Source of the DNA: an uncultured Chloroflexia bacterium
Lineage (GTDB): Bacteria > Chloroflexota > Limnocylindria > Limnocylindrales > CSP1-4
Assembly: GCA_963748625.1 (NCBI GenBank)
Contig: CAVVJT010000007.1
Span: 1-64,000 of the forward strand
Direction: 5' to 3'
DNA length: 64,000 nt
The first letter of the stretch is position 1. The number at the start of each line of letters is the position of its first letter. Made by a program: the position numbers and the translations under genes. Shown one piece after another: positions 6,446 to 29,561 of this stretch. The notes under the pieces were generated by a model. That model had not been told where the DNA came from. It did no database searches and saw only the letters and a list, made by a program, of their open reading frames with translations.

Positions 6446-6481
6446 AGAACGACCGTAGAGGCAAATGGAGGATCAAATCAG

Positions 6482-8119: not shown

Positions 8120-8153
8120 ATGATGCAGGCCCGCGTGACAGGTTGCCGGTCAA
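8120..8153 (-). promoter_or_regulatory. Shared 34-bp promoter motif, copy 1 (upstream of DUF262)
   Basis: Sense strand TTGACC-GGCAACC-TGTCAC-N9-CATCAT. Confidence 0.55.
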
Positions 8154-8199
8154 TCTCGTGGGCAAGGCCAACTGCCCGTCGACCTGAACGCAACAGGAC

Positions 8200-8763
8200 T
8201 CACCAGCCGAGCGGTCGCCGCCGTCGCGCCGACAGCGTCACCCGGAGATGGGTCGGCAGCCGGCCCTGGAGGTTCAGGGGCGGGTCCATCCGGTCCAGGA
8301 TCGCGTGCTCCAGCGCCGGTAGCGAGGCCCGATCTGGCTCCGGCACCACGGCGACCGACAGGTGCTGGCGCATCCACGCGGACAGGCGCGCCTCACCGTC
8401 GCCCGAGAGCGCCCTCCCGCCTTCGTCGAGCAGGTGCAGTCGGCGTGCGAGGAGCGCCGCCAGCGTCATGCGGAACGTCGACCCGGTGATCGTCCCGCCC
8501 AGGTGGTTGCGGCGGATGCGGCTGCCCAGGCTGGCGCTGCTGGTGCCGGCGCCCGCCTGGCCCGCGTAGATCAGGCCGGGCAGGATGCGCTCGAGCGCGC
8601 CCTCGGACAGCTCCGTCGCCCCTTCGACATCGACGAACCAGGCGTAGACGCCGGGCTGGCGGGTGGCATCTGCCGCTGGCGTGAAGGCGGAAGCCGCGAT
8701 CCGGTTCGCCTCGTCGAGGAGGCTCGCAGCCACCTCATCGGCATCGCGGGGTCGGGCGGTCAC
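8200..8763 (-). CDS. GIY-YIG family nuclease
   Basis: PGVYAWF...LIYAGQA...RIRRNH..STFR..LE..PPLN. Confidence 0.8.
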   Translation of the reverse strand: MTARPRDADEVAASLLDEANRIAASAFTPAADATRQPGVYAWFVDVEGATELSEGALERILPGLIYAGQAGAGTSSASLGSRIRRNHLGGTITGSTFRMTLAALLARRLHLLDEGGRALSGDGEARLSAWMRQHLSVAVVPEPDRASLPALEHAILDRMDPPLNLQGRLPTHLRVTLSARRRRPLGW

Positions 8764-8770
8764 GTTCGTC

Positions 8771-9409
8771 CTAGTGCGCTGCCCAGTAGGCGTGGACGTC
8801 GGTCACGGCCCGCTCCCAGGCGGCCTCGAGGGACTCGCCGGGCTGCGCATAGCCCACCTCCTCCAGCGCGGGCAGGAAGCCCTCGGCGGGCATGCCGGTG
8901 GCCTTGCTCACCACCAGCGCGGTCAGGGGCGGACGGCCGGCGGTCGCCTCGTCTAGGGCGATCGTGTGCAGGAACCTGCCGACGTGGCCGCGATTGGTCT
9001 GCAGCTGCTCGTACGTGAGCGTCAGGCCTTCCCGGGCGGCGTCGATGATGCGCTGGTGCACCGCCTCGAGTGCCGCGGATCGCTCGGTCGGGAGCGGTCG
9101 ATCGGCGGACGCCCGCACTGCCCGCGGGGCGACCCGGCTGACGGCTGCGCGGGCGATCTCCCCCTCGGGCCGCCGCGCAAGGAGGCGCAGCGCCCGGACC
9201 GCCTCGTCGCGCGCGTCGGGCTGCGTCATCGCCAGGCGCTCGAGCCATGCCGAGACGGAGTCCAGCAGGTCCGGGCGCTTGCGGGCGGCGTCAACCAGGA
9301 CGGCGATGCAGGCGGAGCCGTGCTCGAGGAACGGATCGCGCAGGGTGATGCGATCGGCCGGCGCCGCATCGAGGAGCTCGCCGAGCAGATCGTCAAGTGA
9401 TCGCGTCAC
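8771..9409 (-). CDS. Hypothetical protein with C-terminal winged-helix-like domain
   Basis: GTG start after an AGGAG-like RBS; C-terminal LTYEQL..GRFL..GRPPLTALVVSKATGMP motif; co-oriented with GIY-YIG. Confidence 0.6.
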   Translation of the reverse strand: MTRSLDDLLGELLDAAPADRITLRDPFLEHGSACIAVLVDAARKRPDLLDSVSAWLERLAMTQPDARDEAVRALRLLARRPEGEIARAAVSRVAPRAVRASADRPLPTERSAALEAVHQRIIDAAREGLTLTYEQLQTNRGHVGRFLHTIALDEATAGRPPLTALVVSKATGMPAEGFLPALEEVGYAQPGESLEAAWERAVTDVHAYWAAH

Positions 9410-9546
9410 GGTGCGTTCTCCTGCGCTGGCTGGTTGACCGCGTTGGGCGGGCTGGGGGCGCGTTCCCGCCCGATCCCCCGCTGGCCACCCGATGGCTCCC
9501 ATCATGCACCGCAGCACACCGATACGGAGCCGCATCACGACGGGGC

Positions 9547-9580
9547 GTGCCACACAGCTGACACAGGACCGCGCGAATGT
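9547..9580 (+). promoter_or_regulatory. Shared 34-bp promoter motif, copy 2
   Basis: GTGCCA-CACAGC-TGACAC-N10-GAATGT. Confidence 0.5.
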
Positions 9581-9618
9581 GCGAGTGTTCGAGGGCGTCC
9601 AGGTATCGGGAGGGAATC

Positions 9619-10092
9619 GTGGATCGATCCAGCCAGCTGGCCAAGGCGAACGCGTCGCTGCAGGAGAGCTGGAACACGCTCGAGCGCACGCTGGCCGCCG
9701 CGAGCGCCGGAAGCACATATCTCGCCAGCCGGCGGGGCGAGGTCCTCGCCTGGCGTGAGCTCATGGCGCCGTGGCGCGAGGGTGCGACCGGCGCGAAACG
9801 CACCATTGCCCTGGCTTCCGAAATGGAGCGCCACCTGGCCGACTTGCAAGCAGGCTATGAGGCCGAGCGGGCCCAGGCCGCCGTCGAGGCCGCGGCCAAC
9901 CGGGCCGAGATCGAGCGCCAGGCTGAGGCCGCCAGGAGGGCTGTCGACGCCGTGGAGCACCGGCGCCTGATGGCCGGGTCTGCCGAGATCGTCCGCCGCC
10001 AGGCCGCCGACGACGCACGTGGACACCGATCCTCAGCAGCCGTGGCGTCGCTGTTCGCCCCGGGCGACCTCGTCGACGCCGGTCCCGGGTAG
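9619..10092 (+). CDS. Hypothetical coiled-coil protein
   Basis: GGGAGGG RBS before GTG; high GC3; Ala/Glu/Arg-rich helical sequence. Confidence 0.55.
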   Translation: MDRSSQLAKANASLQESWNTLERTLAAASAGSTYLASRRGEVLAWRELMAPWREGATGAKRTIALASEMERHLADLQAGYEAERAQAAVEAAANRAEIERQAEAARRAVDAVEHRRLMAGSAEIVRRQAADDARGHRSSAAVASLFAPGDLVDAGPG

Positions 10093-10250
10093 GCGAAGCT
10101 GGCGCTCTACCCCGACGACCAGCAGGTGGGCATGCTGCTTCCGCCTGCTTGCGCAGTGGAAGCACGTGGTCCGGCCCTGCGCCAGCGACATCGGCTGGAT
10201 CAACCATCGGCCTGCGAGGGCCTCTGCAGGCGGTTCGGATCAGCGTTCGG

Positions 10251-10575
10251 CTAGGGCGCGTGATTGCGGCTGCACGACCAGCGATCGTGGCGCCAGTAGC
10301 GACCGGGGTTCTGGCACGGCCTCCCGGCCCTCGTCAGGAACTGGCACGGTCCCTGGGCAGGGGGAGGCGGACCCGAACTGTGCACGTCGTCGTTCACCCC
10401 AGTCCGACGTTCGGAAGGCTCAGCCCTCGCCGCCGCGAATGCCTCGGCGAGAAGTTCATCGCGCGGATCAGACGGCACGGGCGTACACGGTGCGGCTCTC
10501 CGCGAGCGCTGCAGTCAGGATCGAGCGGGGAATGCTGCCGTACCGGAACGGCTCTCCGCTGTCCGGCGTGCTCAT
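10251..10575 (-). CDS. Small hypothetical protein with Cys/His-rich C-terminus, possibly frameshifted
   Basis: CQFLTRAGRPCQNPGRYWRHDRWSCSRNH; an ATG at 10575 lies in a different frame. Confidence 0.3.
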
Positions 10576-10616
10576 GGGTCGGTTTGTTCTCACACAGTGG
10601 CCCGCACGGCCTGCTC

Positions 10617-11786
10617 TCAACGCGCGTCAGCCTCAGCGCGTCGCATGTCGCCCATCAGGTCGACGAAGGCGGCTAGGAACCGATCGCGCGCCGATGAGGG
10701 CCGCAGCACGGCGAGCGGGAATGTCGGCATTGCGCTGTGCTTGTCGGGCGGGATGCCGATCCCCTCGATGGCGTTGAGCCTCGCGATGAACGCATCGCGC
10801 ACTCCCTCACTGGACAGGTACTCCCGACGCCGCCACGTGGAGAACTGGAGTTCGACCCGCTCGGCGCCACCGTCGCCGAACCGTTGGTAGAGACTGAACA
10901 GCGGGACGAAGACTCCGAACGCGTCAGCGTGAACGTGGAGCGCACCAACAGCGCCGCCCTTGCCCATCGACACCCGCCCGATGCCGGCGTCCAGGGCGCC
11001 GGTGACCAGCGCCCTTCCGACGGGCTCCACGTCACCGAGGCCGGCGAAGAACGCGTCCTCGTCCCACTGGCGCCCCGCGCCCCGCACGCCGCCCTTCTTG
11101 CGCTCGGCGTCCGCGGTGCGCCCGATGACGGTGGGCACCAGGGTCTTGAGGTCGTGGCCTTCGGCGTCCTTGCCCACGAACTGCGGGATGGCGATGGCGA
11201 TGACCTCGGCCGGGTCCATCTGGCCGTTGAGGAACTCCACGATGCGCTGGAGCTCGGGCGGGATCTCGTCCGCCACGAAGACGAGGCGGATCCTGCCCGC
11301 TTGGAGGTTGGTCTTGGCCGTCATCCAGAAGGCGTCAGGATCGATGTCGGGCCCAAGGGCCTCGGCCATGACGTCGGCCGGGTCGCGCTTGTCGCGCCGG
11401 CAGCGCTCGTCGAACCAGCCACGGATCTGCTCGATGGGCAGGTAGACGACGGCGTTCGCCGCGTAGTCCAGCATCTGGCCGACGACCTCGCGGCGGATCC
11501 GGGTGTCGGAGCTGCGCTTGACCTCCACCAGGGTGGGGATCGCGTCCTGGTCCAGGAACAGGTGGTCCAGCGACCAGCGCGCCCCGGCATCCTCGCGGTC
11601 CGCGAGCCCCGCCTCCTTCTTCACGAGAAGCCAGCGGCGCGGCGCCGTGGGGTTGACGCCGTCGCCCGCGAGGAGCGAGGGGTACTTCGCGAGCAGGTCC
11701 TGGAGGTGCGCCTCGAGGAGGTAGCCCTCCTGGCGCATCTCGACGAGGTCGTCGTCGCCCTTGAGCACGAAGATGGATCCGCTCAC
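10617..11786 (-). CDS. PD-(D/E)XK (NucS/EndoMS-like) nuclease domain protein
   Basis: LEAHLQ..LDHLFLD..LVEVKR..EVVGQMLDYA; AAGGAG RBS. Confidence 0.78.
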   Translation of the reverse strand: MSGSIFVLKGDDDLVEMRQEGYLLEAHLQDLLAKYPSLLAGDGVNPTAPRRWLLVKKEAGLADREDAGARWSLDHLFLDQDAIPTLVEVKRSSDTRIRREVVGQMLDYAANAVVYLPIEQIRGWFDERCRRDKRDPADVMAEALGPDIDPDAFWMTAKTNLQAGRIRLVFVADEIPPELQRIVEFLNGQMDPAEVIAIAIPQFVGKDAEGHDLKTLVPTVIGRTADAERKKGGVRGAGRQWDEDAFFAGLGDVEPVGRALVTGALDAGIGRVSMGKGGAVGALHVHADAFGVFVPLFSLYQRFGDGGAERVELQFSTWRRREYLSSEGVRDAFIARLNAIEGIGIPPDKHSAMPTFPLAVLRPSSARDRFLAAFVDLMGDMRRAEADAR

Positions 11787-11840
11787 TGGTTGCGCTCCTT
11801 GCTGGCGGCCGCGACCCGGTCGGTGTGCGCACCAGGACGA

Positions 11841-11874
11841 ATGATGGCGGGTCGTGCGTCAGGTTGTGTGGCAC
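11841..11874 (-). promoter_or_regulatory. Shared 34-bp promoter motif, copy 3
   Basis: Sense strand GTGCCA-CACAACC-TGACGC-N9-CATCAT. Confidence 0.6.
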
Positions 11875-11986
11875 CAGCCGGAGCGCCTCCGGGCACCCCC
11901 GCCGGACCCCGCGTCCACGCTCACGTTGGGCCCCGGGAGCCTCGCGAAGCTGCCGATGGACCAGGCCGAGCCCTGAGGAGTCGAGA

Positions 11987-12099
11987 CGCCCCACGTGGGG
12001 GCCGAAACGGACATCGCCGAGCACGCGCTGCGTTCGAAACTCGAGGTTTGGCGCGCACGGCGTGCGTGAACCAGTCGGAAATGCCCCACACGTGGGGCG
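11987..12099. repeat. 113-bp REPIN/MITE-like element, copy 1
   Basis: Ends CGCCCCACGTGGGGG...CCCCACACGTGGGGCG. Confidence 0.85.
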
Positions 12100-12148
12100 G
12101 AGGCGCACGTGACGCAGAGGCGCACATGGCGCAGGCGGACCCGCCGAG

Positions 12149-12176
12149 TGCCATCACCAGTGATAGCATGATGGCA
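12149..12176 (+). promoter_or_regulatory. vapBC operator and leaderless promoter
   Basis: Inverted repeat TGCCATCA-N12-TGATGGCA overlapping -10 TAGCAT, which lies 6 nt before the ATG. Confidence 0.65.
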
Positions 12177-12400
12177 TGAACCGCACCACCATCACGCTCG
12201 AGGTCGAGACCCAGGTCCAGCTGCGGAGGATCGCGGCAGACCAGGGCATCTCCATGGCGGAGCTGATCCGCCGGGCCATCGATGCCACGATCGAGCAGCA
12301 CGCTCCGCGCCCGCGAAGCCTGGGGGTGGGCGCGTCAGGCATCGCGGACACGGCCCGGCGCACTGCGGACGAGCGGCCGGAGCCGCGCTCGTGGCGCTGA
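12176..12400 (+). CDS. vapB: Ribbon-helix-helix (CopG-like) antitoxin
   Basis: MNRTTITL..LRRIA..ISMAELIRRAID; overlaps the PIN gene. Confidence 0.85.
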   Translation: MNRTTITLEVETQVQLRRIAADQGISMAELIRRAIDATIEQHAPRPRSLGVGASGIADTARRTADERPEPRSWR

Positions 12401-12810
12401 TCCTGGACACCGGGCCGCTGTACGCATCGCTGGACCGCTCGGACCAGGACCACGCCGCATGCCGAGCGCTCATCGAGCGGTGCACAGAGCCGCTCCTGGT
12501 CCCGGCGCCGGTCCTGGTCGAAGTCGACTACTGGATCAGCCAGCGCCTCGGTCCGGGTTCGCTCGTGGCGCTGCTGGCGGACATCGAGGCCGGGGCGTAT
12601 CGCGTGGTGGACCTGGTGACCGCCGACTACACCCGCGTGCGGGAGCTGTGCGACAGGTACGCGGACGCGGACATCGGGTTCGTGGACGCGGCGGTGCTCG
12701 CGATCACGGAGCGCCTCGGCGAACGGAAGCTCGCGACGCTGGACCGTCGCCACTTCGGCCTGCTCCGCCCCCGGCATTGCGACGCCTTGGAACTGCTGCC
12801 CTCCACGTAG
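12391..12810 (+). CDS. vapC: PIN-domain toxin
   Basis: ILDTG..E..GFVDA..LATLDRRHF. Confidence 0.9.
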   Translation: MALILDTGPLYASLDRSDQDHAACRALIERCTEPLLVPAPVLVEVDYWISQRLGPGSLVALLADIEAGAYRVVDLVTADYTRVRELCDRYADADIGFVDAAVLAITERLGERKLATLDRRHFGLLRPRHCDALELLPST

Positions 12811-12899
12811 CGCTTGGGCCGGGGATGCGGGCCTGACGGGTCACCGCCAAGGGGCGGATGGCCCCCGGCGCCCCGCCCCGCGCCGCCGGTATGTCGAAA

Positions 12900-13012
12900 T
12901 GCCCCACGTGGGGGCCGAATCGGGACTAGCTGAGCACGCTCCGCGTTCGAAACCCGAGGTTTGTCGCGCACGGCGTGCGTGAACCAGTCGGAAACGCCCC
13001 ACACGTGGGGCG
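12900..13012. repeat. 113-bp element, copy 2
   Basis: Same termini and length; interior similar to copy 1. Confidence 0.85.
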
Positions 13013-13073
13013 AGGTGCACGATGGGGCATAGGTCCGCGAACCGGCGCAGGCGCAGGGGCGCGCAGCGTCCGG

Positions 13074-16000
13074 CTATACGACCTTCGGGTCCGGCACGAT
13101 CTCCACGTACGACGCCGTCAGCGCCTCGTGCTGCGCCGTGACCACGTCGCGCCCCGCCAGCGCGGCCAGCCGCCGGTCCCGGTCCTCCCCCACCGAGGCC
13201 ACGTTGCGCTCCGCGACCTCCAGGTTCTTGCGCCAGACCGGGATGATCCGCTGGACCTCCGGGTCCTCGGACGCGGAGAGCCGCTCGAACGTGGTCCGCA
13301 CCGCGGCCAGCTTCTCGGTCGCCGCCACCTCGCGGTAGGCGTAGAAGCGCTCCACCTTCTCGCGCTCCGCCGCGGCCCGCTCGCGGTTGGACACCTCCAG
13401 CTCCGCCTGGCGCTCGAACAGGCGCGTCACCACGGCCTCGTTCGCGAGGTCCACCGCCCCCTCGAGGCCGTCGAGCGAGGCCAGCGGCCCGGGCATGACC
13501 CAGTCCTCGCGCTTCATGCGGCCGGACGACTCCTGGAGCCAGACGGCCAGCTCGTCGTCCCGGCGCCCGTCGGCGTGGACGAAGACCGGCACGACCTCCT
13601 TGGAACCCACGACGCCCTGGAACTCCAGCTCGAACGTGAAGTACCAGCCGCGGGCCGGGGCGCGATCGAGAGTCCGGATCTCGCGCCGGCTGGCCCGGCC
13701 GCCGTAGTCGCGGGCGGTGCAGCGTGCAAGGAGCGCATCCACCACCTCGTGGCCGATGGCGAAGAACTCCAGCTCCTCGTGGTCGCGCGCGATGGCGGGA
13801 TCGAAGGTGCCGGTACGCGACCGCGCGTCTCTCACAAGATGCGGGAACTCGTTCTCGAAGCCGCCCTTGAGCTTGATGAAGTAGGCGTTGTCGATCTCGT
13901 AGTGCTTCTCCACGCTGGCGCCGAGCTCGGTCAGCGCGGTGAGCGTGAAGCGGCGCAGCAGGTCGCTGTTGACGGTGCCGCGGGCGCCCAGGAGGCGCTC
14001 CACCTCGTCCTTGCGGTAGGACTTGGTGTCCATGATCAGGTCGGCCAGCCGCTTCTCGACGGAGCGGGCCTCGCGGACGCGGGCCTCCAGCTGCTTGTCG
14101 AGCGCGCGGAGGGCCCGCTTGCCTTCGGCATCGGCCATGAGGAAGACCTTGCCGATGTCGTTCTCGACCTCGCCAAGGATGGGGTCGAGCCCGCCGATGG
14201 TCTCCTCGAAGACCCGGATCCGGTTGGTGAGGACGTCGAGGACGCGCTCCTCGATGGTGCCCAGCATCGAGAAGTTGAAGATCTTGACCGGGTGCTTCTG
14301 GCCGATGCGGTCAAGCCGGCCGATGCGCTGCTCGATCTTCATCGGGTTCCAGGGCAGGTCGTAGTTGACCAGGTTGTGGCAGAACTGGAAGTTGCGGCCC
14401 TCGCCGCCGGCCTCGGTGGAGATGAGGATCCGCGGGCCCTTGCCCTCGCGGAACGCGGTCACCGCGTCGTCCTTCTCCCGCGGGTCCAGCTGGCCGTGGA
14501 AGGTGTGGACGGTCCAGGGGCCGGGGATCTCCTGCGCCAGGTACTCCTGGGTGTCGCGGGACTGCGTGAAGATGAGGACCTTGGGGTTGGGACCGTCGGT
14601 CTCGAAGGCGGCGAGGCGCTTGATGAGGACCTGGGCCTTGGTGTCGAGGCCGATCTTGTCGATCAGCTCCACGATCGCGCGCAGGTCGCGCACCTCGGCC
14701 TTGGAATCCTCGATCGCGCGCAGGGCCAGCCAGTCATCGAGGGCGTCCTCGGCCGGCTCCTCGTCCAAGTCGATCTCGTCGGGATCGAGGGTGCCCGTGG
14801 GCGCCGGCATGCCGGATTCGAGCTTCTCGATGCGCCGCAGCAGGGACTCCCGGAGCGCGAAGGAGCTGCTGGAGCTGAGCTTCTGGAAGACGGCCATGAG
14901 GAAGCCGAGGGCGTTGTTGCGGGTGGCTCTCGAGCGCGCGTAGCCGGTGCGGACATACTCGGTGATGGCCGCGTAGGCCGCCCACTCCTGGTCGCTCATC
15001 TCCACGGGCCACACGGTGGCGACGCGGGGCATGAAGCCCCCGACCGTGGCCTTGCGGTTGCGGATGAGGATCTCGCTCAGGCGGTGCTTGGCGAGGAGCT
15101 CGTCGCGGACCTGGTCGCGGCCCTCTCCCGACGCGAGGCGGGCGGCGGCGGTGGGGCGGTCCGCGTCCAGCCAGGTGCCCACCGAGTCGATGGTGGCCAG
15201 CTGCTCCTGTGTCGCGAGCGTCTCCCAGCGGCGCACAAGGTCGACGGTCTGGTTGAGGCCGGCCAGCTGGGATCGATGGTCCTCGAAGTCCCGCTCGTCG
15301 GCGAAGAGGGTGGGGTCCAGGAGCTCGATCAGGGAGTACAGCTCGAAGGGGTCCAGCTGCATGGGGGTGGCGGTGAGCATCAGGAAGCCCAGCGAGCGGC
15401 CCTGGTCGGGGTCGGCGAGGGATTCGGCGAGGCGGTACAGCTTGGTGGAGCGGTACCTGCCCTCACCCTCGCGGGTCCGTCGGGCGTGGTGCGCCTCGTC
15501 GATGATCACGAGATCCCAGCCGGCGAGCGCGATGTCGGCCTGGCGCTTCTCGTCCCAGGCGGCGTAGGTGGTCGACGCGATGACGTTGTCGCGCAGGGTC
15601 CAGACGTTGTCGCCGGGATGCTCGGCGGCCAGGAACGCGGTGGAGGCGCGGTTGAAGTGCGAGAAGACCTCGTTGAACTTGGTGCGCAGCTCGTACTGCC
15701 ACTGGCTGACGATCCCTGGCGGCGCCAGGATGAGCACCCGGCTGGCGACGCCGCGGGCCTTGAGCTCCTTGATGATGAGGCCTGCCTCGACGGTCTTGCC
15801 CAGGCCCACCTCGTCCGCGAGGATGAAGCGGTGGGGGTACGACGTGGCCGCGCGGTGGACCACGCTGACCTGGTGCTCCTTGATCTCCACGCGGGAGTTC
15901 GACAGCGACGAGAGGCCGTCGAACTGGTGGGCGAGCAGCAGGCGGGTGGCCGCGACGCGCAGGTTGGTGGAGCGGGCAAGGCCGAGGTCGCCGCGACCGC

Positions 16001-16350
16001 AGGAGCGAGACGGGGTCCGTCACGAGGGCCGGCCGGAGCCCGGTCTCGGCGACCGCCTTGAGGGCGCCGCCCGCGAGCGCCACCTGGTAGACCACGACGC
16101 CGGCGTTGATGCTCAGCGCGGTCACGACGCCCACCTGGCGGTCCGCGGTCGATTCGACCTGGCTGCCGGCGTGGAAGACGACGCGCTCCAGCGCGGATGA
16201 CGGCCACGCGAACACGAGCGTCTCGCCCGAGTCGAAGTGGACCCGCGCCTGGCGGCCATCCTCGAGCGCCTCGATGACGACGCCGATGTTGCCCGCCTGG
16301 CCGTTCCGCCAGCGGACGAGGTTCCCGCGATGGATCGGCGGGACCGCCAC
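13074..16350 (-). CDS. SNF2-family (RapA/DrmD-like) helicase, frameshift near 15990
   Basis: LADEVGLGKT, DEAHH, LTATP, STEAGGEGRN, NYDLPWNP..EQRIGRLDRIGQ; N-terminal part in ORF 15463-16350. Confidence 0.9.
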
Positions 16351-16365
16351 TACGACAGGCTCCGG

Positions 16366-16415
16366 TTGGTCACGAGCAATCCCCCTTGGTCACGAGCGCC
16401 CCCTTGGTCACGAGC
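16366..16415. repeat. Three direct repeats TTGGTCACGAGC upstream of the SNF2 gene
   Basis: Copies at 16366, 16386 and 16404. Confidence 0.8.
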
Positions 16416-16461
16416 GCTCCGATCTCGATGCCGTCAGCTCCCAGGATGCCGAGTAGCCGCA

Positions 16462-16495
16462 ATGATGGCGGGTCCGGTGCCAGGTTGCGTGGCGC
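16462..16495 (-). promoter_or_regulatory. Shared 34-bp promoter motif, copy 4
   Basis: Sense strand GCGCCA-CGCAACC-TGGCAC-N9-CATCAT. Confidence 0.6.
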
Positions 16496-16615
16496 AGCGG
16501 TGAGGCTCCCCGCACCTCTGGCCCGACAAGGTCAGCCCGACAAGGTCAGAGGGATCGCACGCGCTCGCGTACGCGTGAACGTGTGCCCCCGCGCCCGGGA
16601 TCGCGGGCAGCGAAG

Positions 16616-16649
16616 CTGCCACCCCCTTGACACGGTGCCCCTTAACAGT
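16616..16649 (+). promoter_or_regulatory. Shared 34-bp promoter motif, copy 5
   Basis: CTGCCA-CCCCCT-TGACAC-N10-AACAGT. Confidence 0.55.
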
Positions 16650-16715
16650 AAGAGCACATCGCGGTGAGACCTCGGGCGGACGCCCGGTGAAGCCGCGAGA
16701 CCATGGAGGAACAGC

Positions 16716-17408
16716 ATGGCCCACGACCGACGCAACCACCTCAGCCACGCCGACGCCCTCCGTGCGCTCTACATCGACTTCGAGGGCAACAAGGACGCGC
16801 CGCCCGTCCTGCTGGGCGTCCACCGGGTGGGTCGCGGCCTCCAGCCCCACGTGCAGCAGGACACGACGGACCCGCTGTTCGCAGGCCTGGTCCCGCGGTA
16901 CCTGCCGCTGCTCGACGCGGTCCGCAACGTCGTGGTCCGCGCGGAGGCGAACAACCGGCTGATTGTCGCCTGGACGCTGCACGAGCTCGAGGTGGTACGG
17001 CGTGACTGTGCCGCCGACGCGGACCTGGTCGCCCGGTTCGAGGCTCGGTACGTGAACGCCTACGCGGTCGCCAAGCGGTGGCGGAACCGCGTGCACGGCG
17101 GCGACAAGCCCGACGAGGGCACGCTCTACGCGTGGCTCGAGCTGATCGGGTGGCCGGTGTCCGAAGAGGCCGAGGCCGGACACGTGGGCGACACGCTCCG
17201 GTCGCTCCGCAGGACGCTCGAGGGCGGTCGGACGCTCAGCACTTCGCAGCTGGGCGCCTGGGATCGGCTCGTGGCCCACAACCACCTCGACTGCGTGGGC
17301 ATGCGCAGGCTGTGCCTCATGGCGTCAGCCGAGCTCGAGGACAGCGAGTCCGTGCCGGCCGCGGATCGTCGGTTCGCCCCACGTGGGGGCCGAATCGGGC
17401 ACAGCTGA
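16716..17408 (+). CDS. RNase H-like / DEDD 3'-5' exonuclease-fold protein
   Basis: LYIDFEG (ExoI-like) and HNHLDC (ExoIII-like); GGAGG RBS. Confidence 0.6.
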   Translation: MAHDRRNHLSHADALRALYIDFEGNKDAPPVLLGVHRVGRGLQPHVQQDTTDPLFAGLVPRYLPLLDAVRNVVVRAEANNRLIVAWTLHELEVVRRDCAADADLVARFEARYVNAYAVAKRWRNRVHGGDKPDEGTLYAWLELIGWPVSEEAEAGHVGDTLRSLRRTLEGGRTLSTSQLGAWDRLVAHNHLDCVGMRRLCLMASAELEDSESVPAADRRFAPRGGRIGHS

Positions 17409-17487
17409 GCACGCGCTGCGTCCCAAAGTCGGGGTTTGTCGCGCACGGCGTGCACGGACTCACCGGAAATGCCCCACACGTGGGGCG
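17375..17487. repeat. 113-bp element, copy 3 (supplies the stop codon of the upstream gene)
   Basis: Same termini and length. Confidence 0.85.
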
Positions 17488-17547
17488 GAGGCGCACGAGA
17501 GGCGGAGGCGCACGAGAGGCGGAGGCGCACGAGAGGCGGAGGCGCAC
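17484..17547. repeat. 17-bp tandem repeat GGCGGAGGCGCACGAGA, about 3.7 copies
   Basis: Directly visible. Confidence 0.85.
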
Positions 17548-17659
17548 TCGGGGCGGCTCCCGGCTCGACCTCTCGGACGGACCGGGCCGAGCGGCTCCCC
17601 GTCAACGGGCCTGGTTGGCCCTGACCGGTGGCGAGCATGCCCGGGCATGGTTCGCCGCA

Positions 17660-19624: not shown

Positions 19625-19658
19625 ATTGGATCGCGAGACAGTGACAACTGTATGGCAC
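19625..19658 (-). promoter_or_regulatory. Shared 34-bp promoter motif, copy 6
   Basis: Sense strand GTGCCA-TACAGT-TGTCAC-N10-TCCAAT. Confidence 0.55.
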
Positions 19659-22532: not shown

Positions 22533-22587
22533 ACGGGGCGCGGTGCCGGGGGCGCGGTGCCGGGGGCGCGGTGCCGGGGGCGCGGCG

Positions 22588-23172
22588 TCAGGGGGCCGGG
22601 GTGGCCGGGCCCCACAGGCCGAGGCCCTGGTCGCGGGCAGCCCGCTGGGCCTCGAGCAGGGCGTCCGTGTAGCGCACGTCCGGCGGATAGGTGACCACCT
22701 GGGCAACGCCGCGGGCAACGAGCTCCAGATTCACCATGCGGATGCTCCCGGGCCGGTCCTGGTCCTCCACCCAGGCATAGCGCAGGAGCCGGCCGAACCT
22801 GTCCGTGTCCGACACGTCCGTCTCCAGGAGCACCGTCCGCCCCTCGACGAGGCGCGCATTCTCCGCGGTCGCCTCCTTGGCCATGAACTCGACCGGGGTG
22901 TCCGGCTTGACGCTCTCGGGGGTGTCCACGCCGATGTACCGGACCCGCTCGTCGCCGCGCCCGCGGTCCACGATGATCGTGTCGCCATCGACCACGCGGA
23001 CGACGGTGGCCCGCTCGGTCTGGCCGATGGGGGTGGCGGCAGGCCCGCTCAGGGGTGGCGTGGGGGTCGCAAGGGCTGCGGGGGTCGTCGGGTTCGCGGG
23101 CGCCGCGCCGCCACACGCCGCAAACACCGCGACGGCCACGCCCAGGAGCAGGCAGACCAGCAGCTTCGGCAT
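22588..23172 (-). CDS. Thermonuclease (SNase) lipoprotein
   Basis: Lipobox FAAC; VVDGDT, RYIGVDTPE, DRFGRLLRY, GLW; leaderless start. Confidence 0.92.
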   Translation of the reverse strand: MPKLLVCLLLGVAVAVFAACGGAAPANPTTPAALATPTPPLSGPAATPIGQTERATVVRVVDGDTIIVDRGRGDERVRYIGVDTPESVKPDTPVEFMAKEATAENARLVEGRTVLLETDVSDTDRFGRLLRYAWVEDQDRPGSIRMVNLELVARGVAQVVTYPPDVRYTDALLEAQRAARDQGLGLWGPATPAP

Positions 23173-23352
23173 CCAGCGACGATACCCGCCCTCAGGGGAT
23201 CCGAGTCCCGCCGCCCTGCCTGCCGCCCGCGGGCGCCGTGCCTGCCGCCCGTCCACGCCGCCCTGCCTGCCGCTGGGCGCGCCCATGCCGCTGGGCCAGC
23301 CTGCCTGCCGCTGCGGCGGGCCTGCCTGCCGCTGGGCGGGCCTGCCGCTGGG

Positions 23353-23480
23353 CGGGCCCTGTGTGCAGGATCCCGCACGTTCGGCCCGCCTGGCGGTTGG
23401 AATGGGCCTCGCCGGGGCCGAATCACGCCAGATCTGCCGCCCAGCGGCACACCTGCGCGGAACTCCCCACACAAGGCCCG
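23353..23480. repeat. 128-bp element, copy B
   Basis: Matches copy A. Confidence 0.9.
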
Positions 23481-23633
23481 CTGGGCGGTTGGGGGCAGGC
23501 CGGTGGTGGCCGGGGGTGGCCCGCTGGGCGGCAGGGCCGGCGGTGGCCGGGGGTGGCAGGGCCGGGCCGGGGGCGGCTGGCCCGGCGCTTGCGGCAGGGC
23601 AGGGCCGGCCGACGGTCATCCCGGCCAGCGACG

Positions 23634-24807
23634 TCAGGGGCGCTCCCATGGCTGGTCGCCACCGAAGTGACCCTCGACCGCGAGCCGCTGCATCACCCCC
23701 GGCAGGTCACCAGGGTCCGCCGTCAGCGCCGCGCGCCACCGGTTCCCGCTGTCCCGCAGGGTGAGCGGGATTCTCGATGTGAACGGGGACGGGTCGAGCA
23801 GTGCGCCATCATCGGGGGCCAGCGACACCACCTGGGCCTCGCGATCGCCCGGCCGCCACAGCAGCTCCACGGTCGCCTCGCGCGCGGCCCCCGACCGCAC
23901 GACGGCCAGCGCGATCCGCCGGGCGATGACGCCGCCGGCCCGGTCCACCTTGAACCAGTCCTTCCCCGACCACGCCCCGCCCCCGATCGGCACGCGCGGC
24001 CCGTAGGCATCGGCGACGAGCTTCTTGCCCGACAGGCCGTTGTCGCCCATCGTGCCGCCACACTCGAAGTTGCCGGCCCCGTTGACCAGCACCCGTCCGG
24101 CGAGGTCGTCCGGGACCGTGAATACCGCTGGGGCCGCCGCGAGGGCCTCGGCCACCACCTCCACCACGGCCCGCCGGGTCAGGATCTCGTTCGCCCCCAC
24201 CGCCTGCTGCAGCGACACCGTCGATGCCCGGAGTGTCAACGAGGATGGGAAGGTCCACCCCGCGTCCCCGTTCAGGAGCCGCTCCTCGCACAGCACGGCG
24301 GCCTTCGCGTCGGGCCCCAGCCGCAGGTCCGGCCGGGCAGTCCTGAGCGCCTCCAGCCCCCGCACGATCCGGTGCGCCAGCCAGTGCTCGGCCGGCAGCC
24401 ACCCGGTCGATGGCGAGGCCACCGCATATCCCGTGCAGATCGCCTGGTCGTCGGACACCTCGCGGAAGTCATCCTCGCCGGGCAGCAGGGGCCCGGTGTC
24501 GAGGTCGCACACGATGCCGAGGCCCTCGGGGTCCGGCGGCCAGTCCGCGCCCAGCCCCAGGGATGCGTACCGGCGCTGGACGATCGCCTGGATGTCGCGC
24601 AGGCTGGAGCCCCGCTCCTGCCGCGCGCCCGGTGACGAAGACCATGCCCCGGTGCACGGCGACCTCCACCCCCACGAGGGCCCGGGGATTGCGCGCCATG
24701 GCAAGCCCCACGATGGCATCGGCGATCGCGTCGCAGATCTTGTCGGGATGGCCCGCGGCCACGGCTTCGGCAGCACGCAGACGGATGGACGGATCGAAGG
24801 TTCGCAT
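23634..24807 (-). CDS. Divergent S-adenosylmethionine synthetase (MetK-like), frameshift near 24610
   Basis: E.V..GHPDKICDAIAD; SDDQA in place of GAGDQG; PDAK; GDNGLSGKKLVADAYG; GGGAWSGKD..KVDR; GHFG...PWE. Confidence 0.85.
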
Positions 24808-24810
24808 CGG

Positions 24811-26154
24811 TCAGATCTCCAGGACGGCACTGCGCCGGACGAACCCCGCGAGGTCGGCCGGCACGTTGTGGCGGGTGTAGGCGGCGGCCAGGCGTATCCC
24901 GGCCAAGGTGTCGGCATCGGCCCCGACCGGCGTGCCGACGTAGCCGTCGGTGACGATCACAGCCCGCCGGATGTGGTTGGCCCGTGCGTGGGCGGCGACG
25001 CACTCGATGCTGGTGCCCCCGGTCGTCGCGAACCGCCCGGCCGCGAGATCGGCCATCGATGCCTCAGCGACCACCGTCGAGAACGCGTGGATCACCGGGT
25101 GGACGAGCTCCGAGCAGTCGCGCACGGCGGCCGCGAGCACGCCGACGAGCGGCGCCACGCTCCCCGACACGTCCAGGTACACATGGACGCGCTCACCGGC
25201 GCGAGTCCGCGCGGGCACCTCGACCTCCTGCTCGTGCAGCAGCAGCGGGCTCCCGAGCAGGCCGAGGACCACGTCGCGTCGCGCTCGCGACGGCAGCGGC
25301 CCAAGCTCCGCGTCCTCCACGGGCGCCCGCCGGAGACCGGTGCTGCCCCGGCTCGACATCCCGCCCGCCCAGCGCAGCAGGCTGCGCAGCCGGTCGCGGT
25401 TCCCCGGGACCCGCCGCGGCGGGACGCGGACCGCCCGGAGCGCGTACGAGAACGACCGGCCCTTGATCGGGCTGGGCGGCTGCGGCCACTGCTCCACGAT
25501 CTTGCGGACGACGTCGAGCAGCACCGGCGACCGGTGCTCGAGGTCGCCCTCGTGGAGCCCGCCCGCCTCGTGCCCGCCCAGCAGCGGGATCGCCTCCGCC
25601 CGCACCTCGGGGCAGACCTCCCGCAGGGCATCGCGCAGCTCCTCGTAGGAGACGCCGTCGCGCGAGTACAGCGCCCGGTGGACGTCGGCGAGGCGCCGGT
25701 ACCCCATGGCCACCAGCGCCCTGCTGGCAGATGGCTCCTCCTCCGGGCGCCACCCGGCGGCCGGCCGCAGCAGCGCCTCGGGCACCCGGTCTCCACGATA
25801 GAAGGAGGTGAGGAGCTCGATGCCCCGCGGGTCGGGAAAGAGACGGCAGAGCATCGCGTTGACGACCGCGTCGAACACCAGGTTGTCGAATGACGTCGTG
25901 ACCGGCAGCAGCCGCGTGTGACCGAGCACCACGTGATGGAGCTCGTGCATGACGAGCATCAGGAGGCGCTCGGGGGTGTACGCATGCTCGCGTGCGAACT
26001 GCGGGTTGATGAGCATCCGCGGGACCGGGCCACCTTCGACGGCGGCCGTGGGCACGTCGGTCGATTCGGTGATGTCCACGAGCCGGAACAGCGCCTGGAG
26101 GCCGTACGTGCCGGGCGGCACGCAGTCGAGGATGCGGGCCATGAGATCGCTCAT
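24811..26154 (-). CDS. HExxH metallopeptidase-like + vWA domain protein (DUF2201-type)
   Basis: VPTAAV..INPQF..MHELHHV; MIDAS DVSGS, GGT, VTDG. Confidence 0.85.
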   Translation of the reverse strand: MSDLMARILDCVPPGTYGLQALFRLVDITESTDVPTAAVEGGPVPRMLINPQFAREHAYTPERLLMLVMHELHHVVLGHTRLLPVTTSFDNLVFDAVVNAMLCRLFPDPRGIELLTSFYRGDRVPEALLRPAAGWRPEEEPSASRALVAMGYRRLADVHRALYSRDGVSYEELRDALREVCPEVRAEAIPLLGGHEAGGLHEGDLEHRSPVLLDVVRKIVEQWPQPPSPIKGRSFSYALRAVRVPPRRVPGNRDRLRSLLRWAGGMSSRGSTGLRRAPVEDAELGPLPSRARRDVVLGLLGSPLLLHEQEVEVPARTRAGERVHVYLDVSGSVAPLVGVLAAAVRDCSELVHPVIHAFSTVVAEASMADLAAGRFATTGGTSIECVAAHARANHIRRAVIVTDGYVGTPVGADADTLAGIRLAAAYTRHNVPADLAGFVRRSAVLEI

Positions 26155-26717
26155 TGCGAGGCCTCCTCGATGCTGCGGGCCCGCTCGAGGACGCGCGCGG
26201 GCCAGCCGGGTGCGTCGATCGCGGCGAGGATCCGATCCCGCAGGTCCGGGCCGACCAGCAGGGTCGCGGTGCTGTCAGCGGCGAGAGGGATCCCCACCGC
26301 ACACGGGCGCCGGCGCAGCCAGATGGGTCCGGACCGCTGGCTGAGCAACGTCCAGGCGAGCAGGGGTTCCACGCGCTCGGTGACAACCGGCAGGTTCCCG
26401 CGGCCGGCCAGCGGGAGCACCGAGGGCAGGTCGAGCAGCTCGGGGACCGCGCGGGTGATCGCCTCGAGCCGGCGGATCGCGTCGGCATCGCGCGCGTACA
26501 GCGCCCAGCGGGCCCCACCCAGCACGCGGAGCAGCTGGCGTCGGGAGCGGATGGTGCGGCCATCGCCAGCGCCGAGGCGGAGGCTGACGGCGGGGACAAG
26601 CTGGCGCGTGGGATCGTCCGAGGGGTGGACCACCGCGACCCTCGGGTTGCAGGACATGTTCCCCAGGCGGGGCGGCGGGATGTGGCCGGGCAGGGTGTCG
26701 ATGCCGGGAAGCACCAT
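26151..26717 (-). CDS. Hypothetical protein (188 aa) in the MoxR-vWA operon
   Basis: Start overlaps the upstream stop (TGATG); stop overlaps the vWA start (ATGA). Confidence 0.65.
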   Translation of the reverse strand: MVLPGIDTLPGHIPPPRLGNMSCNPRVAVVHPSDDPTRQLVPAVSLRLGAGDGRTIRSRRQLLRVLGGARWALYARDADAIRRLEAITRAVPELLDLPSVLPLAGRGNLPVVTERVEPLLAWTLLSQRSGPIWLRRRPCAVGIPLAADSTATLLVGPDLRDRILAAIDAPGWPARVLERARSIEEASQ

Positions 26718-26818
26718 CACGAGGCCGCCGCTGCCACTGCGGCCACCGTCGTCGCGTCGGCCACCGTCGTCGCGTCGGCCACAGTCGTCGCGTCGGCCAT
26801 CGTCGTCGCGTCGCCCAT
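26717..26818 (-). CDS. 33-aa repeat micro-ORF MGDATTMADATTVADATTVADATTVAAVAAAAS
   Basis: TGATG overlaps at both ends; four 18-bp repeats. Confidence 0.35.
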   Translation of the reverse strand: MGDATTMADATTVADATTVADATTVAAVAAAAS

Positions 26819-28329
26819 CACGCGGCCACCGCCAACACGCCGGCACGCTTCTTGAGCCGCAGACGCGTGGTCCTCCAGCCCGCGATCGCCTGGCGGACGT
26901 CCCTGGTGCTCCCGATGCGCTGCGCGCCCCACAGGCCAACGAGCAGGTTCTCGAGGTACGCGGACTCCGTGCTCGGCCGCCACCCGCTGACGCGCCTGGT
27001 GATCTCGAGCCATGCCTCGTGGCGGGGCGTCCTGGTCCCGAGCATCTCGTGGACGCCCTGCGGCGTGGACACCATCGCGTAGGCCTCGGCCAGCTGCGCG
27101 GCGACGGCGCCCAGCAGGCCGTCGGCGAGGCCCGCGTCGAAGGCGTACACCGCGACCGCCTCGCGCGTCCCGTTGGCAAGGTCGGCGTAGCCGTCGGCCA
27201 CGGCCGTCGAGCGGAGGACCTGCTCCAGGGCGGGGGTCTCGAGGGCCGTGAGCATGCGCTCGAACCGGTTCGGGATGGCGAGGAGGGCGTGGACCGGACT
27301 GTCGGGTGCGGCCCGGCTGGCCCCGAGCCCCTCGCAGTGCGCGGCGACCACCTTGTGCTCCTCGATCGTGCCGCCCGATGCGCGCTGGGGGAGGCCGTTG
27401 CGCACGGCGAGCAGGGCGGCGTCGTCGGGCGCCACCAGCCCGGTCGCACGGATGGCGAGGATCGAGCGGACGAGCGACGCGCCCCGGCGCGGCGAGCACT
27501 CGAGGCCGGCCTCGTCGAGACAGCGCAACACGGTGCGCACGTAGACCGCGACTGAGGTGTCCGGCACGGCCAGCGCGCCGACGTACCGGGCCCGGGCCCC
27601 CTCCACGGCCGACCGGAGGCGTGCCTCGGCCGCCGCGTCACGCGTGCCGAGGTCCGCGAGGAGCAGCCGCTCCTGGTCGGCCGCGGACAGGCCGCGCCAG
27701 TCGGGCACTGGGACGATGAACGGGAAGCGGTCCGCGAGTGCGGCATCGAGCGGCTCGGCACCGGTGTAGCCCGCGTCACCCCGCACGCCGCTGGCGCCCT
27801 GGGCGTCCGCTGAGCCTGCGATGCCCGGAGGGTCATCGTCGGCCGGCACCGGGTTCATCGCGCTCCAGCGGAAGCGCAGGTCCGGGAGGTCGAGCCCCTG
27901 CACCTTGCGCTCGTGGATGATCGGGAAGAGCTTGTTCTGGATCGAGGGCCTGCAGCGATTGATCTCGTCGAGGAAGACCGCCTCCGCCTTCCAGATGGTC
28001 GCGGGGGTCTGCGCGTACTCGAGGCCGCCGCGTCCGTCGAGGACCGGGTAGCCGACGAGATCGTCGTAGCTCAGCAGGCTCGCGTTGTAGTGGCGCCACG
28101 ACAGGCCGAGCGCCTCGGCCACGCGGGTCAGGAGCAGGCTCTTGCCGGTGCCGTGCGACCCGACCAGGAGCATCGGCAGCTCCGACGCCAGGGCCGCGAT
28201 CACGACCGCCTCGACCTCGCCGAAGCCGATGATGCCCAGGCCCTCGAGCAGGCCCGCGCCCCTGGTCATCGCCGCCGCGCGGCCCGTGGCGCCGGCCGCC
28301 CCGGCCTGCGGATGGTGCGTTGTTCCCAT
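26818..28329 (-). CDS. MoxR-family AAA+ ATPase with long C-terminal extension
   Basis: Walker A GSHGTGKS, Walker B FLDEINR, SAMNP, LDAALADRF, SPRR. Confidence 0.9.
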   Translation of the reverse strand: MGTTHHPQAGAAGATGRAAAMTRGAGLLEGLGIIGFGEVEAVVIAALASELPMLLVGSHGTGKSLLLTRVAEALGLSWRHYNASLLSYDDLVGYPVLDGRGGLEYAQTPATIWKAEAVFLDEINRCRPSIQNKLFPIIHERKVQGLDLPDLRFRWSAMNPVPADDDPPGIAGSADAQGASGVRGDAGYTGAEPLDAALADRFPFIVPVPDWRGLSAADQERLLLADLGTRDAAAEARLRSAVEGARARYVGALAVPDTSVAVYVRTVLRCLDEAGLECSPRRGASLVRSILAIRATGLVAPDDAALLAVRNGLPQRASGGTIEEHKVVAAHCEGLGASRAAPDSPVHALLAIPNRFERMLTALETPALEQVLRSTAVADGYADLANGTREAVAVYAFDAGLADGLLGAVAAQLAEAYAMVSTPQGVHEMLGTRTPRHEAWLEITRRVSGWRPSTESAYLENLLVGLWGAQRIGSTRDVRQAIAGWRTTRLRLKKRAGVLAVAA

Positions 28330-28360
28330 GTGCACGTCCTCCATCCGGCCTGGGTTTCGC

Positions 28361-28394
28361 ACCGTGTCCCCGGCGTGCGACCGGGTCCGGTTGC
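28361..28394 (-). promoter_or_regulatory. Shared 34-bp promoter motif, copy 7 (degenerate)
   Basis: Sense strand GCAACC-GGACCC-GGTCGC-N10-CACGGT. Confidence 0.4.
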
Positions 28395-28460
28395 GGCGCC
28401 TTCGCTGGGCCAGGCCCCTCCGGCGCTCTCGATGGATCCGCTGTGGTGCAGCGGCAGGTG

Positions 28461-29396
28461 TCAGCGATGGGCGGCAGCGGCCTCCAGGGTCAGGCGGTGG
28501 AGCTTGACGAGCTCGTCCTGGTCCAGGCGGCCGCCGGTGTAGCCGCCGGCGAGGACGAAGGCGATGGGCAGGTTCCGCTCCCTGGCCCAGCCGAAGACGG
28601 CGGCCTCACGTTGGGCGAGGAGCGCATGGGTGATGCCGTCGAGACCGCCGGTGCTGCACCGTTCGAAGGGGTCCATGCCGGCGTTGTAGATGACGAGGGG
28701 CCGGCGGTCCGTGTCCACGGCGGCGAGGCGCCTGCGCAACGTCGGGAGGTAGTCGGCCGAGTCGACGATGAGGTCGAGCGTCCAGGCCGCCGGCTGGGCA
28801 TAGGCATCGAAGTAGCTGGTGGCGATGTCCACCGTGGTCACGCGCGGGTCGTCTCCGAGCAGCTCGGCCGTTCCGCCGCCGCAGTGGGCGTCCAGGTCGA
28901 CGATCACCACGCGCTCCACGCCCTGCTCGATGGCCGCGTCCGCGGCGACCGCGAGGCCGTTGAAGGTGCAGAAGCCGGCGCCCCGGCTGCGGCGCGCGTG
29001 GTGCAGGCCCGATGAGAGCGATCCCCCCGTCCCGGTGTCCATCGCCGCGAGGGCTGCGGCGACGGCGCCGCCGGTGCTCGCGCTGGTGGTGGTCCAGAGC
29101 CCCAGGTCCCAGGGGAACCCGCCGTCGTCCGAGCGCTCCGGTGGCTCGCCGGTGCGGATCGCCTCCACGTACGCCCGCTCGTGGACCCTGGTCAGGCGGT
29201 CCGCGGTGGCGGGGGCCGGCTCCCGGAGCTCGATTCCCTCGATGGGCCGGTCCTGCAGCGAGGCGACGATCCAGGCCGCCTTGCGGGTCGTGTCGAACGC
29301 GGGCCCGCCCGTCACATAGGCCTCGGAATAGAAGACGGGGACAGTTCGCCCCGGACTCTCGCCCGGTCGTCCACGCCGGCCACCGCCGTCAGACAT
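28461..29396 (-). CDS. Histone deacetylase-family (Zn-dependent) hydrolase
   Basis: VHERAYV, GLHHA, GFCTFN, DLDAHCGGGT, YNAGMD, LAGGY. Confidence 0.9.
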   Translation of the reverse strand: MSDGGGRRGRPGESPGRTVPVFYSEAYVTGGPAFDTTRKAAWIVASLQDRPIEGIELREPAPATADRLTRVHERAYVEAIRTGEPPERSDDGGFPWDLGLWTTTSASTGGAVAAALAAMDTGTGGSLSSGLHHARRSRGAGFCTFNGLAVAADAAIEQGVERVVIVDLDAHCGGGTAELLGDDPRVTTVDIATSYFDAYAQPAAWTLDLIVDSADYLPTLRRRLAAVDTDRRPLVIYNAGMDPFERCSTGGLDGITHALLAQREAAVFGWARERNLPIAFVLAGGYTGGRLDQDELVKLHRLTLEAAAAHR

Positions 29397-29527
29397 GCGC
29401 ACACCTCCATCGAACCCGGCATTAGCACCGTGCTGCTCTCGCGGCCGGTTGCTGCGTCGTCAACGAGCCGGGGCTCTCAGACGCTCGTGATGGGGTGCCG
29501 CGCTCGTGACGCGGCCTCGTTGTCCCA

Positions 29528-29561
29528 AGTGTCGGGTGGACTTGTGACAGCTGTATGGCAC
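29528..29561 (-). promoter_or_regulatory. Shared 34-bp promoter motif, copy 8
   Basis: Sense strand GTGCCA-TACAGC-TGTCAC-N10-GACACT. Confidence 0.6.

Follow-up and report, generated by a model that had tools for sequence, protein, structure and literature searches.

What controls the nuclease and helicase genes that lie between about 7.3 and 29.4 kb of a 64,000-nt stretch of bacterial DNA (contig CAVVJT010000007.1, positions 1 to 64,000; here called the window)? An earlier note on this DNA had read eight strings of exactly 34 bp as promoters sharing a three-hexamer motif, with the geometry of promoters served by the WYL-domain activator PafBC, and had proposed a damage-responsive regulon linking the nuclease genes with a MoxR-MetK module. 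Seven of the eight strings carry a longer imperfect inverted repeat (the box), oriented towards the downstream gene and in fixed phase to a -10 hexamer, and the same arrangement recurs upstream of genes for repair and mobile elements in Chloroflexota and Eremiobacterota.

The box in the window

The earlier note transcribed and placed all eight strings correctly. Each points towards a gene that starts 31-196 nt further on, in line with the claimed match of orientation to the following gene. The shared element, an imperfect inverted repeat, measures 18 nt, or 19 nt in three of the sites, and consists of GTGCCA, an asymmetric core of 6-7 nt, YACARY(C), and TGNCAC. It is best seen in five strong sites (9547, 11841, 16462, 19625 and 29528), whose similarity far exceeds the three hexamers. 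On the plus strand, GTGCCACACAGCTGACAC (9547..9580) precedes the gene of a 157-aa coiled-coil-like protein, with 10 nt between the box and the -10 hexamer GAATGT. The other four lie on the minus strand. GTGCCACACAACCTGACGC (11841..11874), before a candidate NucS-like/PD-(D/E)XK nuclease gene, and GCGCCACGCAACCTGGCAC (16462..16495), before a SNF2 helicase gene, have the 7-nt core and a 9-nt spacer to CATCAT; 28 of their 34 positions are identical. GTGCCATACAGTTGTCAC (19625..19658) precedes a GmrSD_C/DUF1524 nuclease gene and GTGCCATACAGCTGTCAC (29528..29561) an HDAC-family gene. Both have the 10-nt spacer; the HDAC site ends in GACACT, and the nuclease site in TCCAAT, a poor -10 with C at its second position. 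Aligned, the strong sites with the 6-nt core read GTGCCACACAGC-TGACAC (from 9547), GTGCCATACAGT-TGTCAC (from 19658) and GTGCCATACAGC-TGTCAC (from 29561).

Two further sites are degenerate. CTGCCACCCCCTTGACAC (16616..16649, plus strand; 10-nt spacer, AACAGT) stands before a 230-aa exonuclease-like gene, divergent from the SNF2 promoter, and TTGACCGGCAACCTGTCAC (8120..8153, minus strand; 7-nt core, 9-nt spacer, CATCAT) lies 196 nt before a GmrSD_N (DUF262) fragment. All three sites with the longer core end in CATCAT and keep the total length of 34 nt. Across the eight strings, NANNNT is present in seven, and the spacer is 10 nt in five and 9 nt in three. Invariant in the seven supported sites are G3, C5, T13, G14, C16 and C18, that is, one G-n-C triplet per half. 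Five of the six outer pairs of the repeat are symmetric, and conservation is highest in the upstream half, GTGCCAYACA.

The 18-mer of the HDAC site, with at most two mismatches, is also found at 9547 and 19641 (0.03 expected; 100 shuffles). A weight matrix built from the five strong sites scores them at 22.6-31.1 bits, and the highest score in shuffled DNA was 14.0 on average and 19.0 at most (40 shuffles); elsewhere in the 64 kb all scores stay below 12 bits. The test is circular for the five source sites but not for the absence of further matches, and here it agrees with the earlier observation that the motif does not precede the metabolic genes. When the strong sites are defined by the box alone, NANNNT stands at the fixed place in four of the five (background 0.0189 per position, P=6e-7). 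The sites before the exonuclease-like gene and the DUF262 fragment each have four mismatches to the box consensus and retain the -10. A rule of at most four mismatches plus a -10 returns six sites against 0.03 expected (maximum 1 in 40 shuffles), with a 7-gap consensus derived partly from the sites under test. The eighth string, proposed as a MoxR promoter (28361..28394, minus strand, in the 131-nt gap between the HDAC and MoxR genes), has about 11 of the 18 box positions wrong and is recovered by no scan; we count it as a chance occurrence, indistinguishable from background. The idea of a motif common to all eight sites is thus upheld for five strong and two degenerate sites, and given up for this one.

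The flanks of the sites are unrelated to one another, and the interspersed repeats near them do not include the box. Between 10284 and 10345, where no clear gene follows, GTGCCA occurs twice within 30 nt, and the second copy begins a weak box-like site, GTGCCAGAACCCCGGTCGC (10284..10317, minus strand), with CACGAT properly spaced after 9 nt; this low-confidence candidate may be a decayed promoter. A blastn search with the 34-mer gave no match in plasmids. Among phages it gave two records of one Pseudomonas phage, within a PhoH gene, which are irrelevant.

The box and its -10 hexamer in other genomes

The exact 6-gap box, GTGCCAYACARYTGWCAC, was sought in one genome per species from 185,579 species. 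At least 117 loci were returned, and the counts that follow are among the matches listed, 80 of which came with flanks of 3 kb and 37 with about 300 nt. The query was the 18-mer alone, so the flanks give an unbiased test of spacing. Of 90 non-redundant hits, 28 have NANNNT beginning precisely 10 nt past the box, whereas the 39 other offsets gave 1-10 hits (mean 5.6%; P=5e-14 for the excess at offset 10). The stricter TANNNT occurs there in 10 of the 90, against 0-4 at other offsets. Sorted by record title, the phased hexamer is found in 16/20 Chloroflexota and 18/20 Eremiobacterota/Vulcanimicrobiota hits, and in 4/26 from Planctomycetota, 4/10 from Actinomycetota and 4/41 from others; three of the Actinomycetota hits sit in apparently one conserved coding region. 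Two separate exact boxes stand at different genes in each of five genomes, where chance, by our own estimate, would give about 0.002 per 5-Mb genome. Because the phased hexamer recurs across genomes, the box, a 10-nt spacer and a housekeeping-type -10 can be regarded, on sequence grounds, as a real promoter module of Chloroflexota and Eremiobacterota, and the window fits it. The spacing claimed earlier, 10 nt from TGNCAC to NANNNT (9 nt in the three 7-gap sites), is therefore borne out beyond the window.

The downstream genes also help to place the transcription start. Among open reading frames (ORFs) of at least 100 aa, the start codon lies 5-8 nt past the hexamer in seven loci (four copies of a 421-aa protein, an HNH gene, a 145-aa gene and RuvB). 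This layout fits leaderless mRNAs and would put the start of transcription where the earlier note had predicted it, about 6-7 nt past the last hexamer.

SSB accounts for 12 of the 60 first ORFs scanned with Pfam (11 from Eremiobacterota, one from Rhodothermales). In 12 ssb loci (L007, L012, L013, L023, L024, L036, L038, L064, L069, L089, L102 and L117) a sigma-54-like sequence lies just upstream of the box, and its textbook -24 element coincides with the left box half. The sigma-54 promoter pattern, TGGCAC-N5-TTGC, has 0 matches in the window. Other genes behind the box encode RuvB (L079), an N6/N4 DNA methylase adjoining ribonucleotide reductase (L014), an HNH protein (L025), an AAA_11 helicase (L019), a Cas3 HD protein (L083, with the hexamer at offset 11), the pSAM2-type replication initiator RepSA (L045, L063), an integrase (L074), a MerR protein (L065) and a small ORF next to ada/MGMT (L053, L071). 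The 421-aa protein follows the box directly in four loci (L011, L018, L041, L046), apparently leaderless, and is followed in turn by Ku in L011, L041 and L046. By eye it carries a D...ExK nuclease-like motif. It has no Pfam, NCBIfam or PDB match; in the atlas, its clusters come mainly from Chloroflexota and Actinomycetota and point weakly to DUF2130 and Mrr (Mrr_cat). As judged from the sequences, this is the pattern of a regulon for DNA repair, nucleases and mobile DNA. The ssb, ruvB and Ku-operon cases, with the HNH, helicase, Cas3, methylase and RepSA genes, speak for the repair and defence regulon, run in trans, that had been proposed from the window.

A tblastn search with 35 window proteins against the listed loci gave a single match and no orthologous promoter to compare. 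The match is in a Chloroflexia genome (L055:3001-5073), where a box with GAGTGT at offset 10 precedes a homologue of the ADP-ribosylglycohydrolase/phosphatase gene of the window; the window copy (47100-48812) lies in a NrtR/NadR-like NAD cluster and has no box. Six Planctomycetota loci (L003, L026, L040, L043, L044, L107) have a TTGACA-like hexamer 15-17 nt after the box and no -10 at offset 10, and the box in this phylum may belong to a different promoter architecture or be unrelated. A relaxed scan for second sites in the 117 listed loci was discarded: it gave 20 hits against 0-7 in five shuffles, but 18 of the 20 were the anchor sites reversed and the rest were at chance level.

Gene content of the window

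Genes were called by third-position G+C and named via Pfam, NCBIfam and PADLOC. From about 7.1 kb onward the G+C content is 68-76%, and in the first 7 kb about 50%. The change is abrupt (about 7060-7100) and falls inside the GmrSD_N (DUF262) gene, a frameshifted and truncated fragment on the minus strand (7924 to about 7080). Positions 1-7100 code for 6PGD, PGI and a PutA-like protein, PGI and PutA each being broken into two ORFs, and the junction suggests foreign DNA or a chimeric join, in an assembly that contains indel errors. Beyond it, the host is probably a member of the Chloroflexota rather than a mycobacterial relative, because of the relatives of its PanB and its alternative-complex-III-like genes (55.5-59 kb). 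PanB has one relative at 93% identity, and the organism-named relatives among the 120 listed are metagenome-assembled genomes of Chloroflexota (83%) and Myxococcaceae (81%).

The cluster at 7.3-29.4 kb contains no tRNA, integrase or G+C shift; the 'island' of the earlier note is therefore a gene cluster and not a demonstrated mobile island. The 157-aa coiled-coil-like gene begins with GTG (9619-10092, plus strand), and the NucS-like/PD-(D/E)XK candidate (10617-11786, minus strand) matches PADLOC PDC-S11 (1.3e-10). The SNF2 helicase (minus strand, start about 16350, end 13074) spans two reading frames because of a frameshift near 15990, and is nearest to BrxHI (6.8e-107), with DrmD and RapA also matching; in its 5' leader a 17-nt unit occurs three times in tandem (about 16370-16420). 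Between these two genes, a small ribbon-helix-helix-like ORF overlapping a PIN-like ORF (12176-12810) resembles a VapBC pair by eye; it has no NCBIfam or PADLOC family match and no box. The 230-aa exonuclease-like gene (16716-17408, plus strand) shows, by eye, a DxE motif near its N-terminus and has no family match. PDB and NCBIfam searches with this protein, the NucS-like protein and the 421-aa protein found no match. The GmrSD_C/DUF1524 (HNH) nuclease is secreted and runs from a TTG at 19560 to 18769 on the minus strand. The cluster also holds a GIY-YIG gene, a 244-aa gene without a name, a gene for a secreted protein, a PAS hybrid histidine kinase and an SNase.

The HDAC-family gene (29402-28461) is the first in a minus-strand run that continues with the MoxR AAA gene (28329-26818), an unnamed gene of about 220 aa recognised by its third-position G+C signal (about 26810-26151), a VWA gene (26154-24811) and an S-adenosylmethionine-synthetase-like (MetK-like) gene (24917-23634). 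The unnamed gene opens with four 18-nt tandem repeats (26723-26817) and has no family match. The run (23634..29402) is tightly packed and is an apparent operon behind the HDAC box. The proposed link between the nuclease genes and the MoxR-MetK module is retained through this strong box and the apparent operon, not through a MoxR promoter.

Two families of G+C-rich intergenic repeats are interspersed here, both with short tandem sub-repeats (57-nt and 17-nt units). One is 254 nt long and 78-93% identical (19694-19947, 23318-23571 and 30080-30333); the other is 146 nt long and 81-84% identical (11980-12125, 12893-13038 and 17368-17513); 29855-30042 also belongs to these repeats. They lengthen several ORF calls wrongly, for example at the 5' ends of the PAS kinase and panB.

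Candidate regulators and known systems

A promoter that lacks a -35 but has a -10, together with a protein site at a constant phase to it, depends on an activator. No sigma-70-like -35/-10 pair was found in 7900-27800 (0), and by eye no TG extended -10 precedes the offset-10 hexamers of the listed loci. Because of the 10-nt spacing and a transcription start about 7 nt past NANNNT, the box would be a pseudo-palindrome at about -40 to -23, with a housekeeping-type -10 and no -35, and in this predicted layout it matches the geometry of PafBC, SiwR and DriD promoters. We infer that the box activates rather than represses, and likewise the signal and, by analogy, the family of the regulator. A dimeric activator acting in trans would bind the box, its proximal half occupying the position of the PafBC '-26 element'; the housekeeping sigma factor would read the -10, and the activator would replace the contribution of the absent -35. 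The asymmetric YACA of the core, at the -35 place and 17-18 nt from the -10, is perhaps a remnant contact for sigma region 4. The regulator would most likely be a WYL-domain winged helix-turn-helix (wHTH) protein of the DriD, SiwR, DdaA or PafBC kind, encoded elsewhere in the genome, and, if of WYL type, would be activated when a nucleic acid signals DNA damage or invasion. In the window it would co-induce the GmrSD fragment, the NucS-like nuclease, the SNF2 helicase, the exonuclease-like gene, the DUF1524 nuclease, the coiled-coil protein and the HDAC-MoxR-VWA-MetK-like operon. That the box is the site of such an activator, most likely WYL-type, in -35-less damage or invasion promoters is a reading to which we give about even chances. 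The wider proposal is more tentative: the box may define a global, SOS-independent stress regulon of Chloroflexota and Eremiobacterota, perhaps of more phyla, in which an activator sensing single-stranded DNA, most likely from a new WYL clade, couples ssb, ruvB and Ku/non-homologous end joining with defence clusters of nuclease and helicase genes, with genes for the replication of integrative elements and with the HDAC-MoxR-VWA-MetK-like module.

No WYL match was found in the called ORFs of the window (57 kb of host genome), in nine unnamed window proteins under lenient Pfam settings, or in 180 (126 + 54) of the 321 neighbouring ORFs at the listed loci. The absence of a regulator gene beside the box fits a global factor acting in trans and argues against a local repressor of the BrxR/CapW type. 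Several points weigh against a WYL activator of damage promoters. Nothing found here ties a WYL protein to the box, the WYL identity being a best guess by analogy, and damage induction of the promoters is likewise argued from known systems. The two GNC triplets are 8-9 nt apart, against 7 nt in DriD and DdaA sites, and the left half has GCC, not GWC. The SSB cases from Eremiobacterota are largely one orthologous promoter, and the link to repair thus rests on few independent gene families; 12 ssb loci of this phylum also carry the sigma-54-like TGGCAC-N5-TTGC on the opposite strand (14/117 listed loci overall). The taxon shares come from a sample of unknown bias, and 37 of the at least 117 loci have flanks of only about 300 nt. 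In the window, one promoter may have given rise to both the NucS-like and the SNF2 promoter, which would then not be independent evidence, three sites require a 7-nt core with a 9-nt spacer, and the HNH site (19625) has a poor -10.

Some of these points would suit the same promoter module under an activator of another family, such as a different winged-helix protein, a MerR/CRP-like dimer or a phage-type appropriator: no WYL gene can be linked to the box, and its sequence and spacing are unlike the published WYL sites compared. However, placement at -26, 10 nt to the -10 and no -35 are so far described, in the accounts compared, for WYL activators, whose sites share the GNC triplets. With its centre at about -31.5, the site differs from the CRP class II position and from the MerR arrangement, which has a 19-20-nt spacer. 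A non-WYL activator is therefore a minor, though real, possibility. Somewhat less probable, and in our view unlikely, is a repressor operator (LexA-like, XRE-like or of the BrxR/CapW WYL type) over the upstream half of the promoter, relieved after damage or infection. An imperfect palindrome overlapping a promoter would be expected of an operator, and ssb and ruvB are classic SOS genes; yet the phase to the -10 is strictly fixed rather than variable, there is no usable -35 or extended -10 to block, and no LexA-type gene stands behind any box among the ORFs scanned. LexA of Dehalococcoides recognises a site of the GAAC-N4-GTTC type. The box is unlike the LexA motifs given in one 2012 paper (CTGT-N8-ACAG, GAAC-N4-GTTC, GTTC-N7-GTTC and TTAC-N3-GTAA; PMC3323433), although these may not be the host's, the same source counting Chloroflexi among some clades for which a well-defined motif was lacking. 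BrxR and CapW sites, as described, lie at or after the -10 by the regulators' own genes, and no regulator gene adjoins the box.

Genuine PafBC promoters of an actinobacterium, activated by RecA-NDp, are a highly improbable reading. The geometry is identical, and four sites have TGTC or GGTC 9-10 nt before NANNNT. The PafBC consensus is given as tGTCgg(N10)tA(N3)T; the element occupies -28 to -23, a -35 is absent, and the GTC triplet is described as strictly conserved, in a motif that is said to be neither palindromic nor accompanied by any other consensus upstream (PMC8635444). Here the 10-nt spacer to the tA(N3)T-like hexamer is found, but GTC is present in only four of the eight strings (HNH, HDAC, DUF262, MoxR), the others having GAC, GAC, GGC and GAC, and it is absent from three of the five strong sites. 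The conserved upstream half is a feature that PafBC promoters are described as lacking. The best named PanB relatives are from Chloroflexota, and the same module is typical of Chloroflexota and Eremiobacterota among the listed hits. The geometry noticed earlier is thus genuine, and the supposed kinship to the PafBC box is not borne out. Scarcely credible, finally, is a chance reading of hexamers in DNA of 72% G+C, or a dispersed repeat element. Taken together, the hexamers as first read form a loose pattern, with 13 matches where 2.8 are expected; the MoxR site falls in this category, and interspersed repeats lie near some sites; but the five strong sites are far outside the shuffles, their flanks share nothing, the repeat families lack the box, and the box recurs across phyla with a phased -10. 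This reading is refuted for the five strong sites and stands for the MoxR site.

A trans-acting activator at the box would matter beyond this locus, as damage and invader responses are known in molecular detail for few phyla only. The simple rule of box, N10 and TANNNT picks candidate regulon members in uncultured Chloroflexota and Eremiobacterota, and the box is a bait of known sequence for fishing the regulator, as with DdaA. Co-induction with nucleases is predicted for the HDAC-MoxR-VWA-MetK-like module, the secreted DUF1524 nuclease and the 421-aa nuclease-like protein by Ku. The findings also suggest a wide distribution for -35-less activation, of which PafBC, SiwR and DriD gave the first examples. 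In the literature searched, which excluded logos that appear only in figures as well as subscription journals, no paper gives the box; the promoter architecture appears to be that of WYL activators, whereas the box, its host range and its regulator appear undescribed.

Among known systems, PafBC shares with the box a hexamer at -28 to -23, 10 nt before a housekeeping -10, the absence of a -35, and a regulon with repair and nuclease genes (PMC8635444, PMC6789036). It differs in that the box is pseudo-palindromic, with a second conserved half-site and a core upstream, in a host that is probably from the Chloroflexota. BrxR and CapW, dimeric wHTH-WYL repressors with inverted repeats of about 20 bp beside defence genes (PMC9122601, PMC9122588), are encoded next to their targets and are described as binding at or after the -10; here no WYL gene is adjacent, and the box lies upstream of the -10. 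SiwR, a homodimeric WYL activator of M. smegmatis, binds a 19-bp imperfect palindrome between -35 and -10 in which the -26 region is essential (PMC10693628), a site similar in length and place to the box. As described, SiwR serves one adjacent operon through a GGA triplet at -26, whereas the box has another sequence and stands at many unlinked promoters with no adjacent regulator. The DdaA site of Moraxellaceae, CGWCA-N5-TGWCG, is a palindrome with a GWC core and, in the published account, precedes recA, ssb, ruvAB and cas genes (PMC12392091), bringing repair and anti-phage genes into one regulon; the box differs in abutting the -10 region. DriD of Caulobacter recognises ATACGAC(N7)GTCGTAT, a 21-bp site that covers the -35 position and keeps a constant distance to the -10; sigma region 4 docks on the opposite DNA face (PMC13004042). 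Like the putative activator of the box, it uses a pseudo-palindrome in -35-less promoters and regulates several damage-response genes in trans, but its site and the box are unlike in half-site sequence and spacing. The box thus has the features of DriD- and SiwR-type sites, namely a pseudo-palindrome of about 19-21 bp over -35/-26, a fixed distance to the -10 and no recognisable -35, and by our comparison its GNC triplet in each half is common to the cores of PafBC (GTC), DriD (GAC/GTC) and DdaA (GWC) sites.

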